64,000 bases of DNA, from contig OY970368.1 in assembly GCA_963718615.1 (NCBI GenBank), forward strand, positions 4,702,524 through 4,766,523, written 5' to 3'. Origin of the DNA: an uncultured cyanobacterium (GTDB lineage: Bacteria > Cyanobacteriota > Cyanobacteriia > PCC-9006 > JAAUQQ01). The stretch's first letter is position 1; every line of letters begins with the position of its first letter. Shown piece after piece: positions 10,105 to 17,749 of the stretch. A program made the translations under genes and the position numbers. The notes beneath the pieces were generated by a model that worked only from the letters and a program-made list of their open reading frames with translations, was not told the DNA's origin and ran no database searches.

Positions 10105-10575
10105 TACGGGATTCATGATGAACGTCAGTGATGCCCAAAAGTCTTCTAGCCATCTAGCGGACTGCGAACGCTTCGGCCTCCGCGATTGAGCACATGGGTG
10201 TAGATCATGGTTGTCTTGACATCTTTTTGACCCAGACGTAGACCGCTACTGTAGAGAATCTGAATCATTAGCCGATAAACCCCAGACAGGTTCTTAATGA
10301 TTGCGCAAGTCTCATCAGTCTTGTCTGAACGATAAGAATTAATGTTTGAGACGCAAGGCTTCTCGAACCCTGTCTAGAAGCTTCTTTGGAGGTTTTTGCA
10401 TGGTAGTGTGATAAATCGAATAATTCGGCAGATCACCCTAAATGGCATGATATTCAGAATAATTCTGATGTACTCCTGGGGATATAGGTCAAAATTCTGC
10501 ATATCACCCCTCAGGGAGGCAATATACGGAAAACTCTGCATACTAAATTGTTAGAATTTTTCATGACACTTTTTC

Positions 10576-11028
10576 ATGACACTCCCCATTGCCAACCTAA
10601 TCATCCCGACTTGGGCCCTCTACACTACCAGTGGGCTCTTTGGGTTCCCCGTGATGCTGATCTTGGTGTCAATAGCTGAATCTGCCATCCTCATCCGTCC
10701 CAACTACCCTCACCACTCAGTCCCTCGCATCTTGGCTATGGTAACCATCGCCAATGCCGCCTCCACCATGGTCGGGATCCTCATCCTCGCCATGGCAAAT
10801 CCTCAACCACCCAGATCAGGTGATGCCGTCCTCGTACAAATCATCACGGCACCGACCATTATGGCCATATGCGCAATGTGCCTTGCCTCCTTCATCATTG
10901 AGGCCCTTGTCCTCTTCCCCACCCTGCCCAAGGCACCCAAGCTAGACCTGATCGTCTACATACTCTTTGCCAATATTGTCTCATACTCGGCCTTCTACCT
11001 CATCGTCTTTTGGATCGAATTGTTTTGA
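10576..11028 (+). CDS. Hypothetical integral membrane protein (about 4 TM)
   Basis: 150 aa, strongly hydrophobic, with no recognised family. It abuts the recombinase fragment. Confidence 0.4.
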   Translation: MTLPIANLIIPTWALYTTSGLFGFPVMLILVSIAESAILIRPNYPHHSVPRILAMVTIANAASTMVGILILAMANPQPPRSGDAVLVQIITAPTIMAICAMCLASFIIEALVLFPTLPKAPKLDLIVYILFANIVSYSAFYLIVFWIELF

Positions 11029-11080
11029 GAAATTTTTCCCAATTGAATCCTCTCCTTATCCCTTCAACCCCGTATCCAAA

Positions 11081-11320
11081 TTAACGTGAAGGCTTTGCCC
11101 GAAGGGCCTGAACATTTTCAAGTGGCTGTTGAAAAATCTCACGATAGAGAAATAAAACTGCACTTTCGGTCACGCCCATGTCCTTGGGATGTCGCTTGTT
11201 GTGAAACAGAATGTAACGCCGAATCCACTGAACGTAAGTTTGCTCTGTTTTGTAGGAATAGTGATTGAGTCGTAGGGCTACACGGACTTGATCTAGAAGC
11301 TTGGGGGGCTGGGATTGCAT
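11081..11320 (-). pseudogene. Integron-type tyrosine recombinase (IntI-like) N-terminal fragment, internally deleted and truncated
   Basis: LLDQVRVALRLNHYSYKTEQTYVQWIRRYILFHNKRHPKDMGVTE aligns with IntI1 [45 protein letters not shown] (Phage_int_SAM_4-type N-terminal domain). ...FLYREIFQQPLENVQALRAKPSR then aligns with IntI1 ...[24 protein letters not shown], skipping about 22 residues. A stop follows PSR and the catalytic domain is absent in every frame. Confidence 0.7.
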
Positions 11321-11415
11321 GGGAGCCGAGGATGAAGCCTCTGGGTTCCCTGACTCGGTGGTGAAGATTTTGTAATTTTCTACGCTGACTCAAATGGGGT
11401 GATTATACTGAGACA

Positions 11416-11650
11416 TGCCTGATAATACCTGTGTAGGGATGTTATCCGGCAGCGGTGCCGGGATAACGCCTAGAAATGGGTTGTTATCACGCACCTTCGC
11501 CTGATAATACCCAACCAGGGATGTTATCCAGCATGATTGCCTGGATAACTGGCTAAGACTGGGGATTATACGGCGTTGGCGCTTGAGAATACCCGGAGGA
11601 GGGAGTTATCAGGCATCGTGCATGAGAATAAGTTGTTATGCCGCTGAGTT
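11416..11650. repeat. Array of structured direct and inverted repeats next to the recombinase 5' end (att-like region)
   Basis: An approximately 85-bp unit occurs twice: gcctgataatacc-N7-gggatgttatcc-N12-ggataac(g/t). Further diverged copies occur once inverted (gagttatcaggc) and once as gttgttat(c/g)(a/c)cgc. The motif TATCAGG/CCTGATA recurs at 14265-14300. Confidence 0.5.
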
Positions 11651-11819
11651 TCTGGTGGAGACATAGCCGCAATATTGCTTACTGGTGTCCGATATCAAGT
11701 TGCTTTGAGACAACGCAAATCGAGAGTTGCCTTAAAAGTAGAAAGCTCAAAAACCTTCTACATTGTCTATGCCGTTGAGTTATGTTATTACCAAGCAATT
11801 CATAAGTAATTAAAGAGAC

Positions 11820-12154
11820 ATGACAACCCTGCTTGTTCTTGGCAATATTAATCAGTTTACATTTGCAAACTCTGTAATCGCAGCTAACGCCAAGGCTGAG
11901 GAAATATTTGAGCAGGGTCTAACAAATATATTTGTTGTGCATTCAAGAGACTCCTATACCAAGCTAAAGAGTAATGAAGATTGGGTAGATCATGCAGAGG
12001 CAAATGGTGTAAGCCGAGAATTATTTGTTGATAAAATTGTTGAGATCACAGCAGAAGATGACTCAATTAAAAGATTCGTTGATTATATTGAGGGTAGTGC
12101 CTTTAGCTGGGGGATGAGTATGGTGTGGCCATTAGAGAAAGAAAAAGCAAACTG
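11820..12154 (+). pseudogene. 5' fragment of an AT-rich gene interrupted by the IS1-family element
   Basis: The ORF MTTLLVLGNINQF...SAFSWGMSMVWPLEKEKANW runs into the IS left inverted repeat. The tail after that is IS-derived sequence. It has the same strand and AT-rich composition as the ORF downstream of the IS. Confidence 0.4.
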
Positions 12155-12180
12155 GGTAAGACCCTTCTGTGCCAATTGCG

Positions 12181-12492
12181 ATGACTCAAGAGCTGCTTCA
12201 TTGTCCTAACTGTCTATCTGAAGATATCAGCCGTAACGGCTTCAACGATCGCGGTACTCAAAGCTATAAATGTCGAGATTGCCATCGCCGGTTTGTCCTG
12301 ACTCCGAAATCCCTTCCCTTGAGCGATGAAGAGATAGCCTTGCTCGAACGTTTATTGCTTGAAAGGCTAGCCATCGCTGGAATTGCTCGGGTGATGCAGC
12401 GCTCCGAGAGCTGCATTCAGACCTACGTCAACGCCAAAGCTAAAACCGTTGCTCGGGAGGTGGAAGTGACGAAGAAAGTAAAAAAGCTCTGA
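12181..12492 (+). CDS. insA: IS1-family transposase InsA (zinc-finger/HTH)
   Basis: MTQELLHCPNCLSEDISRNGFNDRGTQSYKCRDCHRRFVLTP... with a C4 zinc finger. Confidence 0.75.
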   Translation: MTQELLHCPNCLSEDISRNGFNDRGTQSYKCRDCHRRFVLTPKSLPLSDEEIALLERLLLERLAIAGIARVMQRSESCIQTYVNAKAKTVAREVEVTKKVKKL

Positions 12493-12500
12493 CGGTCCAG

Positions 12501-12941
12501 ATGGACGAACTCTGGTCGTTCGTGGACCATAAAGGAAATAAACAGTGGGTTTGGATTGCTCTAGATGCGGACACTCGCGAAATCATTGGCCTTTATATCG
12601 GGGACCGAAGTGCTAAATCTGCCGAAGCTTTATGGCGGTCTCTACCGGGAGTGTACCGCCAATGTGCAGTCATCTACACCGATTATTGGGAGAGCTATGC
12701 CTGTGTGCTTCCTAGCCAACGCCACCGAGCGGTTGGGAAAGAAAGCGGGCTGACGAGCTACATCGAGAGGTTCAACTGCACCCTGCGGCAAAGGGTGTCG
12801 CGCTTGGTCCGAAAGGCGCTCTCGTTTTCAAAGAAACAAGAGAACCACGAGGCTGCGATCTGGAATTTCGTTCACCATTACAACCAGCAATTGCGCCTTA
12901 AGCAGGCTCATACCGCTTCATTCTCTCCAGCACCCACATAA
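12501..12941 (+). CDS. insB: IS1-family transposase InsB (catalytic domain; normally made as an InsAB frameshift fusion)
   Basis: MDELWSFVDHKGNKQWVWIALDADTREIIGLYIGDRS... with the DELWSFV motif diagnostic of IS1 InsB. The frame is -1 relative to insA. Confidence 0.8.
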   Translation: MDELWSFVDHKGNKQWVWIALDADTREIIGLYIGDRSAKSAEALWRSLPGVYRQCAVIYTDYWESYACVLPSQRHRAVGKESGLTSYIERFNCTLRQRVSRLVRKALSFSKKQENHEAAIWNFVHHYNQQLRLKQAHTASFSPAPT

Positions 12942-13098
12942 TTGGACTACCTATATTGAGTTTATTTTAAAAGGTATCCCAAATGGATCAAGACTTATCG
13001 TTGATATTACAAATGGGACTTCATTACAAAAAAATCTACTCTCAATAGCTTCTTATATCCTTGACATAAAAAATCAATACACGATCGATGTTTCCAAG

Positions 13099-14145
13099 TT
13101 GTTTGAACTAACTAAAGAAAGAGGCTTTCTGCCAACTGATATTTTGCTATCCTGCTATGCCCCAGTTCCTGATAGCACTAGACTTGATGGCATCGCCTAT
13201 CTAAATCTGTCAGAAATGGTACGCTACAGGAAAATTATAGAATCTCATACTAACAAGTATGTAGCCATAGATCCAAGTTCCTCTGATAGAGAGTTTTTCA
13301 AGGATAACTTGGGTCATTCTATTCAGTTAAAGTTACAAGGAGATCAAAGCAAAGATAACGCTATATATCGCATAGCGGCTTCATCAATTTCGGCAAGCGT
13401 GGAGGATCTAATTCGTCTTCTGGTGAGCAAATTTATCCTAGCTGATACTCCTGATGGAGTAGATCGCAAAACTTTTGGGCAAAAACTCAAAATTATTCAA
13501 GCCAAAATTGAGAAAGATGCGCCGTCTGACTTTGATATAGAGTTTTTTAGCAAGTTCAATGATTTCATTTTGTACTTGAGAAATAGTTCCACACATAAAG
13601 GTAAGCTTTTAACTGACTTGGAGAAGTTCAAGGCAGAGCTTTCTGTCAAAATGGCTTTTCCCTTTATTGAATTTTATACAGATATCGTGCATCCTTTGCT
13701 ATCAAGTGGTGAGCTTTCTAGAGAGCCAAAGCATATGAAAAAATTAACGTATGCTGATATAGCACCAGGAGACACCTTGTATTATGGGTTGGACGGAGAT
13801 GATACAGGAAAGATATTAGAAGAACTTTTTCTTGCCTGTAGCGATGAATCTAGCTTTCGGAAATTGAGCAAAGATGTAGCAAATGCGATTTCAAAAATTT
13901 CTAGATTTGTTACTGATAAGCTTGGTAAGAATGCAATTGTATTTGAGGCGGGTGACGATCTTTTGTTCAAGGGAAATTTTCAAGAAGATATGCTTTTGGA
14001 AATGCAAGCTATGTATTCACAATTAACACCTGGGCTAACGTGTTCAATTGGTTATGGGCGATCATTTCAAGAGGTATATTTAGCATTAAAACTCGCAAAG
14101 ACCCAGCCAGGTAAAAATGCTATTGTTGGAATTGAGCTTTGCTGA
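13099..14145 (+). CDS. Predicted HEPN-like (Rx4H) domain fused to minimal GGDEF/Cas10-like palm cyclase (mCpol-like); N-terminus truncated by IS1
   Basis: The C-terminal 150 aa carry YYGLDGDDTG (acidic metal-binding strand), FEAGDDLLF (aligns with GGDEF RYGGEEFVV and GGDD of Cas10) and LTCSIGYG (SxG strand). The N-terminal helical part has LRNSSTHKG (R-x4-H). The track start is a TTG; the frame is open for a further 147 nt back to the IS end at 12952 with no ATG. The region is AT-rich. Confidence 0.5.
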   Translation: MFELTKERGFLPTDILLSCYAPVPDSTRLDGIAYLNLSEMVRYRKIIESHTNKYVAIDPSSSDREFFKDNLGHSIQLKLQGDQSKDNAIYRIAASSISASVEDLIRLLVSKFILADTPDGVDRKTFGQKLKIIQAKIEKDAPSDFDIEFFSKFNDFILYLRNSSTHKGKLLTDLEKFKAELSVKMAFPFIEFYTDIVHPLLSSGELSREPKHMKKLTYADIAPGDTLYYGLDGDDTGKILEELFLACSDESSFRKLSKDVANAISKISRFVTDKLGKNAIVFEAGDDLLFKGNFQEDMLLEMQAMYSQLTPGLTCSIGYGRSFQEVYLALKLAKTQPGKNAIVGIELC

Positions 14146-14389
14146 GCTTGTCGCAGCATAACATAGGCCCTGAGCCGGACGGGGTCAATAGAGAAGATAA
14201 AAAATAACTCTGATGTAATGTCTGAGCGAATTGAAGCCAGCGCAAACCACCTGATAGTCAGTTTTGAGTATCAGCCGAACTGAGCTATCAGAGCCATCTT
14301 CGTATTTTTCGTATTCGATTGGTTCAAAACCTAAAGCAGTTCAATCGAGCAACAAAATAGAGACCTAAGCCGGTAAAAGAGCGACCAAA

Positions 14390-14790
14390 GGAGAGTTTTT
14401 GCGCCGGAGAGCAGCGAGATACTTTTCCTCATCATAAGGAGTCCTATCCTGCCAACACCGCCAAAGAATCCGACCCCCTTTATACGCCAAAGCACGAATA
14501 GCCTTTTGATGGGATTTACCCGCCAGTCGTTTTTGTTGATAAAATGCCTGTGACCAGACCGAGCGAGACCGAGCATGGGTGACCCACTCGACAAAAGTTT
14601 GCCTCAGAAAGATAGGACAAGACCAACGCCAATGGACCCAACGTTGCTTGCCAATTTCCTCCGCCTGAGGGGTGGCCTGAATAGTGGATTGTGCCCAGGT
14701 CTCATTCTGGCAATCGTAGAGAGCAATATCATGTTTGCGGTCTGTCCAATCAATGCCGATATAGGCAGCATAAACGGTTGTGAAGAGATT
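14390..14790 (-). pseudogene. IS110-family (DEDD) transposase relic
   Basis: Minus-strand translation gives YIGIDWTDRKHDIALYDCQNETWAQ...FYQQKRLAGKSHQKAIRALAYKGGRILWRCWQDRTPYDEEKYLAALRR. This joins an IS110 N-terminal IGIDxxK motif to a C-terminal Transposase_20-like tail. The middle is missing and there is no start codon. Confidence 0.45.
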
Positions 14791-15430
14791 AGGTCAAAGG
14801 TCTTTCCCTGCTCCCTGAGGATTCGTTAGGCAGCGAGCGGATGGGCTGGACGGGCGATTCGATTGGTTAGTAGTCATCTTCTGACTGGCGCTGCATAGTC
14901 GTCCCGACAATCTGGCAGATGCTCTCCTTTCTTGACTTTATGCGCTTCTGTCAAATTCGCGCATGGGAGAGGGATGAGCGATTCGGTATGTTCGTAGACA
15001 TCCTCTGTGTCGTCCAATGCATAGTCGTCTCTTCCTGGTTCTTCTTCCCCGTCCCCCATAAAGTCGATGAAGCGGACGGTTGGAAGATTTATTTTTGCGG
15101 GGATGCTGAGGTTGCCTGCCGCCGCTTGTCTTGGTCGTTAGACCGACAAAGCAAGATAGAGAAACAAGCAAGAGAATTTGAGTTTTCCGGTGTTGGAGAC
15201 AGTCTTGTGGCAGAATCAGCAGAACGCAATCAAGAAACTTCACCGACAAACTTGCAACGATCGCTGAATCAGAAACATGAAAAAGCCTTAGGGGACAAGC
15301 TGTATCAGACAGAAAGAAATAGATTCTTGTCAGTTCGTTCCCTGACCTTCTCACACTGCGCGTGTTTCCGCCCATCAGCATAGTTAATTAGGGTAAAATG
15401 AGAGGGCTGAGTTGAAATGAGGTCAAGCCT

Positions 15431-16071: not shown

Positions 16072-16273
16072 TTGTGTGCGAGAGTGATCGGTGAGGCGCG
16101 GTCTAACAATGCGATGGAGCGGCGAATAAAGTTTTTTCGCTTCGTTTCGGTTCTACTTGTCGCTGCTCATCTTCACCGTTGTGCCGCTGGTTTAAGGTGT
16201 TACTGTTTCTGAAGATTGATCGGTCACCTGCGAGAATTAATTACACATCGTTAGCTATATTGAAAGCACTTTT

Positions 16274-16816: not shown

Positions 16817-16925
16817 TTTCCGCAGCACAACAACGTTGTACCGTTGTACCGCTTCGTTTTAGGTTGTGGCGGTAAGCTAAAAATTACCGGGTTTCTCAAA
16901 TTCGTATTGACACTGTACATACGTC

Positions 16926-17523: not shown

Positions 17524-17749
17524 TCTGTGTTTACCAGCAGTACAACAACTTGGATGCAGCGGACTCGCAGGATTGATCACTAATGGACGTAGCGTAGCTT
17601 CGAGCCGCTGATCAAAAACGTTAGTGTTCAAAATCACGAAGCAACAACGCAAGTTTGAGCTTGTGCATGAGATTTAGATTTCACTACAATTTCCACATCT
17701 CGCCCCAAAGCATTGAGAAAGCGAAAGAATCGTGCGGTCGAAAAACCTG

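Follow-up and report, generated by a model that had tools for sequence, protein, structure and literature searches.

A phased array of alternating half-sites as the probable attI region of a decayed cyanobacterial integron

Textbook attI sites contain two to four integrase sites, and an attC site is an imperfect palindrome of the order R''-L''-L'-R', about 57-141 nt long. In attI1, a simple site is accompanied by two accessory IntI1-binding direct repeats (DR1 and DR2), which favor recombination between attI and attC; attI sites and the integrases that use them evolve together (PMC8946536, PMC3146285). Other described attI sites are made of two inverted boxes 4-5 bp apart, most of them without extra repeats (PMC12614218, PMC3146285, PMC8946536). 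For most integrons the attI site is unknown, and it is currently not searchable (Cury et al. 2016, PMC4889954). Integrons in cyanobacteria, with frequent integrase pseudogenes, are already known (PMC4889954, PMC2426708).

Here we describe a region, attI-A, within a 64-kb stretch of DNA (the window). It fills the interval from the 5' end of a dead integrase gene to a putative cassette-insertion box, GTTATGC. How does it compare with the systems above? Like attI1 of class 1 integrons, attI-A lies between the 5' end of the integrase and the first cassette, has at its end a putative box of the G|TTRRRY type with an inverted L box before it, and carries extra GTTA-containing elements about 19-20 bp apart on the integrase side. 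It differs from attI1 in the number of putative accessory elements (about 11 versus 2), in length (about 245 bp versus about 65 bp) and in their alternating orientation with a tight 40-41-bp period, whereas DR1 and DR2 are direct repeats. This last difference makes the analogy with DR1/DR2 a loose one. Moreover, attI-A has no sequence homology to attI1 and its cognate integrase is a pseudogene; any likeness to DR1/DR2 would be functional only. With the attI sites of sedentary chromosomal integrons (attIA of Vibrio cholerae and environmental families), the region shares a chromosomal location, a lineage-specific sequence that co-varies with the integrase, a putative terminal simple site with a crossover box, and toxin-antitoxin cassettes (BrnT here), but the cyanobacterial sites add a long phased array. 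The arm sites of lambda attP and the att sites of Tn916/ICE also set several recombinase-binding sites (putative here) around a core and give rise to a higher-order complex. Those systems use a separate arm-binding domain, host bending proteins and irregular spacing, whereas the sites described here resemble the core boxes themselves. To our knowledge, IntI has no arm-binding domain.

The half-site array and the integrase remnants

An unsupervised motif finder combined with a PWM scan resolved 12 half-sites in attI-A, and a 13th, the weaker L box, was recognized by eye (Table 1). Neighboring half-sites alternate strictly in orientation at a spacing of about 20.5 bp, that is, two helical turns, which gives a 40-41-bp period. 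The R and L boxes make up a putative simple site, and an element of roughly 13 bp recurs beyond them in about 11 further copies. The array is of the CCTGATAAYACC type, with GATAAYACC as the motif in the window.

Table 1 Features of the decayed integron in the window
Feature	Position	Strand	Description
psi-intI-B	10149-10401	-	Heavily deleted integron-integrase remnant; pieces correspond to aa 1-27, about 115-140 and 294-322 (tblastn)
attI-B	10402-10556	.	More decayed alternating half-site array, motif TTCTGAATATCATGCC / GGTGATATGCAGAA; R box GTTAGAA at 10550-10556
psi-intI-A	11084-11320	-	N-terminal integron-integrase remnant, aa 1-103 of relatives, with internal deletion; 79-aa ORF at 11320-11081
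attI-A	11398-11643	.	13 half-sites, consensus about CCKGATAAYACCC / GGGTRTTATCMGG; repeat and motif evidence
attI-A half-sites 1-6	11398(-), 11418(+), 11437(-), 11459(+), 11479(-), 11500(+)		Starts of 13-mers
attI-A half-sites 7-11	11519(-), 11541(+), 11561(-), 11582(+), 11601(-)		Starts of 13-mers
attI-A half-sites 12-13	about 11619(+), 11631(-)		Starts of 13-mers; weak L box and R box
TATAAT	11402-11407	-	In the gene-proximal half-site (CAGTATAATCACC); possible -10 element of an integrase promoter (speculative)
Putative attI simple site	11619-11641	+	L box GCATGAGAATAAG at 11619-11631; R box GTTATGC at 11635-11641
IS1-family transposase genes InsA, InsB	12169-12941	+	Pfam PF03811, PF03400; between attI-A and the intact cassettes
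mCpol-domain gene	13099-14145	+	Pfam PF18182, E 3e-38; between attI-A and the first recognizable attC; 'HEPN-mCpol' in the original prediction
attC site	15053-15143	+	Ends in GTTAGAC; R1 44.6 bits, E 1.8e-10
attC site	16101-16184	+	R1 32.6 bits, E 6.5e-7
Center-deleted attC	16825-16849	+	GCACAAC AAC GTTGTAC CGTTGTACC; R1 15.3 bits, E 0.02-0.09
attC site closing the BrnT toxin cassette	17540-17626	+	R1 35.6 bits, E 8e-8

The original prediction, made from the sequence of this stretch, had placed a repeat array just beyond the point where a recombinase gene has its 5' end. This was borne out, as attI-A starts 78 bp upstream of the psi-intI-A start codon. The predicted extent of the array, 11416-11650, was right in its coordinates apart from the start, which lies about 18 bp further to the left. 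The same prediction described a unit of approximately 85 bp present twice, with diverged and inverted copies; the duplication and the diverged and inverted copies are there, with a unit length of 82 bp (11417-11498 and 11499-11580) and a degenerate third unit. In a repeat search, a 51-nt direct repeat (11417-11467 versus 11499-11549) showed 78% identity between copies 82 bp apart, a 26-nt sub-repeat recurred at spacings of 42 and 40 bp, and a perfect 11-nt inverted pair, ATGCCTGATAA/TTATCAGGCAT, was located at 11415 and 11606. Tandem Repeats Finder did not report the 82-bp repeat, because its copies are too diverged. The 82-bp harmonic of attI-A (0.55) is stronger than the 41-bp harmonic (0.35), which is unusual among the arrays and indicates a recent duplication of a four-site unit.

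Quantification of these patterns set attI-A apart from the rest of the window. Inverted 9-mer pairs at 14-27 bp numbered 36, compared to 3.8 ± 3.0 in shuffled sequence, and none of 500 shuffles reached 36. When the 64 kb were divided into 637 sliding 300-bp segments, an alternating run of at least four half-sites was observed in one, at 11401-11700, with a run of 10. The array also holds 11 of the 17 top PWM scores of the window, and nothing else resembling it was found within the 64 kb. The proposed refutation of the original prediction was a motif at random frequency with no association with cassette boundaries; what we found is a motif above background and tied to a cassette boundary. The TATAAT of the gene-proximal element is common to 8 of 34 arrays, all from one lineage, and a consensus promoter scan did not call it at 11402-11407, leaving an integrase promoter there unsupported.

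We mapped the extent of both integrase remnants by tblastn with full-length relatives. psi-intI-A matches the N-terminal SAM-like domain of phage-type integrases (Pfam PF13495, E 8e-15), and its match to TIGR02249 is N-terminal only, covering the first 45 positions (51.7 bits; cutoff 265). Both intI copies in the window lack aa ~141-293, and an intact catalytic core and the IntI-specific additional domain occur only in the relatives. Since both copies are remnants, the element in the window is a relic rather than a working integron. The best 120 protein-database matches to the 79-aa ORF are all short and limited to the N-terminal domain. These short homologues have differing end points and unrelated tails; they therefore do not constitute a small-protein family but are pseudogene fragments that arose independently of one another.

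The second array, attI-B, has a significant 39-42-bp periodicity (3 of 500 shuffles reach it), and its inverted-pair count is not significant (86 of 500 shuffles reach it). The pairs psi-intI-A/attI-A and psi-intI-B/attI-B form two tandem platform relics about 1 kb apart. A tandem repeat of TTTTTCATGACAC (2.1 copies, 10557-10583) spans the attI-B box and the start codon of the ORF at 10576-11028.

Related loci and the terminal box

A scan for relatives, limited to one genome per species, returned 80 loci. Intact integrase genes of ~320 aa were present in 19 of the 33 cyanobacterial loci; intact relatives include Leptolyngbya sp. PCC 7375 (L013, JH993797.1), Leptolyngbya sp. JSC-1 (L011) and Egbenema (L025). 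Two full-length relatives tested on TIGR02249 scored 464 and 473 bits, well over the cutoff, and these two are therefore bona fide integron integrases. In the 400 bp upstream of intI, most cyanobacterial loci carry at the equivalent place an alternating array with a 40-41-bp period and lineage-specific motifs, as in locus L007 (TCTGCCTAATCACCC-TATATG-TCAGATTAGGTAGA-AATTCG-...). The longest alternating run had a median of 5 among the 33 cyanobacterial loci and reached at least 6 in 13 of them, compared to a median of 2 among 39 loci of other phyla, of which one (L085, Anaerolineae) reached at least 6; in shuffled sequences it never exceeded 4. With a run of 11, the array in the window was second to that of L026 (14). 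The period between half-sites of the same orientation was 40 or 41 bp, equal to four helical turns, in 88 of 126 intervals.

The half-site motif itself varies by lineage (CTAATCACC, CTAAGATCCC, CTAACACCCC and TATATCTACC in relatives, compared to GATAAYACC in the window), and it also differs between attI-A and attI-B, 1 kb apart in one genome. In many loci, the motif finder grouped the L box with the half-sites of the array in one motif family. Together, the lineage-varying motif and the membership of the L box in the array's family suggest a binding protein encoded by the element rather than a host factor. When the simple site of each locus was ranked for its match to its own array, the mean rank was 4.8 of 20 versus 10.5 expected, a positive trend in a comparison confounded by related loci and by imperfect definition of the regions. 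The arrays also persist beside integrase pseudogenes in relatives. Alternating arrays of 4-9 sites were also seen upstream of non-cyanobacterial integron integrases (L085 of the Anaerolineae, L040 and L053 of the Chloroflexi); thus, the architecture is not restricted to cyanobacteria.

At each well-preserved related locus, the gene-distal end of the array is a RYYYAAC box with an inverted partner, for example, GGTCTAAC-TATTTA-TTAGAC. Read on the cassette strand, this example gives GTTAGAC, the canonical integron crossover box. Five pairs of related loci (L014/L015, L016/L030, L016/L001, L027/L036 and L007/L038) are 75-97% homologous across intI and the complete array. In each pair the homology breaks off precisely at the terminal (A)TAAC box, at a distance of 221-291 bp upstream from the ATG, and the sequences past the box are unrelated. 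This stop identifies the box as the platform/cassette junction, the behavior expected of attI and its cassettes.

In the window, the L box agrees only weakly with the consensus of the array (at about 8 of 13 positions), and GTTATGC deviates from GTTRRRY at one position. The crossover in the window (G|TT) would fall between 11635 and 11636. We infer this position from positional homology only, because no close relative of attI-A was found; two metagenome pattern scans returned no match to a sister locus. The sequence past the putative crossover, TTGT-TATGCCGCTGAGTT (11637-11650), recurs 131 bp downstream at 11768-11781 (TTGTCTATGCCGTTGAGTT). This recurrence, at which the attC model has no match, could be a small ORF-less cassette, a duplicated attI flank or chance. 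On the same side of the box, in L008, L010, L012, L013 and L028, a conserved stretch (...TAGTGTTCCCAACNGGTAACATTTCTAYC...) lies about 60-110 bp past the attI R box, between the first attC and attI. These loci come from several genera, and the stretch may be a conserved ORF-less first cassette or an outward promoter.

Cassettes and layout of the decayed integron

On the cassette side of the relatives, a crude scan picked up imperfect palindromes of about 87 nt with the pattern GCTAAC...GCAGCGGAC...GCCGCTG...GTTAGCC. This manual scan, which combined AAC...GTT with folding energy, lacked specificity in the window and gave good attC seeds in related loci. An alignment of 11 cyanobacterial attC sites revealed compensatory changes in 12 of 19 pairs, and we built the covariance model R1 from these 11 sites. 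R1 finds 36 sites in cyanobacterial loci. Of these, 34 have the placement that integron organization requires, upstream of intI and on the strand opposite to it. In the window, all attC sites found are on the plus strand and oriented away from the integrase remnants. The first of them is 3.4 kb from the GTTATGC box, and R1 found no attC between 11636 and 15053. The center-deleted attC lies between a cold-shock-domain cassette and the BrnT cassette; the latter, the last of the series, has a Pfam match to BrnT with an E value of 3e-21.

Read in order, the locus begins with psi-intI-B and attI-B, the ORF at 10576-11028, and psi-intI-A and attI-A. A disturbed stretch follows, with an IS1-family element, the mCpol gene and a transposase remnant, and then three or four intact cassettes. 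What could have been labeled an orphan recombinase fragment with odd repeats thus becomes two tandem decayed integron platforms and a surviving cassette array that includes a BrnT toxin, with an mCpol gene nearby. The IS1-family element overlaps the 3' end of an ORF at 11820-12209, and no inverted repeats bounding the element were found. The transposase-like remnant is on the minus strand within the stretch 12169-14830. The mCpol gene is a defense-type gene inside the integron footprint, without a recognizable attC of its own: R1 had no match beside it, in 14146-14330.

The original prediction had also linked the array to a TATCAGG/CCTGATA motif at 14265-14300, downstream of the mCpol gene. 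This link did not hold, as the motif occurs there at chance level. The best PWM score at 14250-14310 is 6.3 bits, which 128 positions in the window equal or exceed, and there is no significant half-site match. The hexamers CTGATA and TATCAG occur 23 and 13 times, respectively, in the window. In addition, 14140-14330 folds no better than shuffled sequence (z of -1.85) and has no match to the attC model.

Putative accessory integrase sites and alternative explanations

These data are probably best explained by a degenerate sedentary chromosomal integron whose attI region is attI-A, with putative accessory integrase-binding sites, present here as a relic. An attI-like array of recombinase sites at the place where attI would be expected, as originally predicted, is thus supported at the level of sequence by the integrase remnant, the architecture of relatives, the end of homology at the box and the downstream attC sites. 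The repeated elements are putative accessory IntI-binding sites, a reading to which four features point: a motif family that includes the L box, variation of the motif with the integrase lineage, phasing on one face of the DNA, and occupation of the whole interval from box to promoter. Each element would bind its cognate IntI, in the manner of the DR1/DR2 accessory sites of attI1 but in far greater number. Cooperative loading of IntI on one DNA face would then gather the integrase at the simple site and position it there to recombine attI with attC. Such binding would probably also feed back on transcription of the integrase and the cassettes, since the array extends over the DNA directly upstream of intI. 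In the window, the integrase gene has been destroyed and attI-A is therefore a relic; to act at all, it would need an IntI with the matching specificity to be encoded elsewhere in the genome.

The same position directly upstream of intI would also suit an operator array bound by some regulator that is not full-length IntI, such as a host transcription factor or a free N-terminal SAM-like domain derived from truncated genes, which would control divergent integrase and cassette promoters and have no direct role in recombination. The proximal TATAAT of one lineage, the short N-terminal-domain proteins that make up all of the best 120 database matches to the ORF in the window, and the persistence of arrays beside pseudogenes agree with such a regulator. 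However, a single host factor is made unlikely by motifs that differ between lineages and between the two arrays of this genome, the short proteins are independent pseudogene fragments with no coherent family among them, and the boxes of the simple site belong to the motif family of the array; we consider this explanation unlikely. We find it quite improbable that the array units are attC-like sites, whether several empty cassettes in a row or, as the original prediction had suggested, folded single-stranded recombination substrates in the form of hairpins. The units do share RYYYAAC/GTTRRRY-like boxes and imperfect inverted repeats with attC sites (59-base elements), 11461-11529 can be drawn as an R''-L''-L'-R' hairpin, and R1 gives a weak partial match to the terminal box at 11461-11489 (16.5 bits). 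Over the full 11461-11529, however, the R1 score is 6.4 bits, compared to 33-45 bits for true attC sites in the window; R1 thus detects terminal boxes only in the array, whose units fail the model as attC sites. An attC of about 87 nt would not fit within the 40-41-bp period, and in relatives the arrays are part of the conserved platform on one side of the junction rather than of the variable cassettes on the other.

Folding bears both on attC-like hairpins and on a structured RNA, such as the cassette transcript's leader or some small RNA. The strand-by-strand prediction that had been proposed as a check indeed showed strong folding of the attI-A region as single-stranded DNA, with z scores of -4.5 and -5.5, but it did so equally on both strands, as expected of plain DNA palindromes. 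In 15 arrays, the identity between adjacent half-sites of opposite orientation (0.678) was no higher than that between non-adjacent ones (0.686 and 0.667), and half-sites of the same orientation were slightly more alike (0.72-0.73). Half-sites are therefore conserved toward a consensus and not toward a pairing partner, and the partner-specific covariation expected of attC or of a structured RNA is absent, the motif being conserved per half-site and not per pair. Rfam 15 gave no match at the gathering threshold in the whole window and only chance-level matches at 10800-12000 with E values up to 10. We accordingly give a structured RNA very little credence. Just as little falls to the view of the array as a functionless product of local duplication or slippage, or as the end of another mobile element. 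The 82-bp unit is clearly duplicated, and the locus is a decaying one with an IS1-family element and a transposase remnant, but the phased architecture recurs at the equivalent position in dozens of species despite diverged sequence, and no associated transposase or terminal inverted repeats mark the array as an element end. Readings of the repeats as DnaA boxes, NtcA sites or dif-like half-sites were dropped, as the comparative data place the array in integron platforms.

Beyond this locus, we tentatively propose a more general form, with clearly less confidence than the attI assignment itself. Cyanobacterial and some Chloroflexi integrons may have a poly-site attI, with 6-14 alternating, two-turn-phased putative integrase elements on which IntI would assemble as a filament or a wrapped nucleoprotein complex; this assembly would drive the capture of cassettes at the terminal simple site and autoregulate the integrase and cassette promoters. 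If this is true, the poly-site attI would be an architecture qualitatively more elaborate than any characterized attI, and the window would hold one of its longest examples, fossilized beside a dead integrase. A full-text literature search returned no description of long phased alternating arrays at attI. The signature of a phased array ending in a crossover box could serve for attI annotation in cyanobacterial and some Chloroflexi integrons, and would also fix the exact boundary between platform and cassettes. If the elements bind IntI, they would imply that integrase and DNA form a higher-order assembly at attI that far exceeds what the two accessory sites in attI1 offer, and would bear on the coupling of cassette capture and integrase expression outside Proteobacteria.

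Two further observations concern the surroundings of intI. Between the array and intI, at 20-50 bp from the ATG on its upstream side, the palindrome TGTA(C/T)-N8-(G/A)TACA is present in L008, L009, L011, L014, L015, L019, L022, L024 and L025, and attI-A is without it. We take this palindrome to be reminiscent of an E. coli-type LexA box. On the upstream side, the integrase gene lies 0-750 bp from the contig end in many MAG contigs (L007-L010, L016-L019, L031-L033, L041, L043, L047, L052, L053, L058, L074, L076, L078 and L081), as if assembly tended to break off at attI or shortly past it, probably from variation in cassette content within populations.
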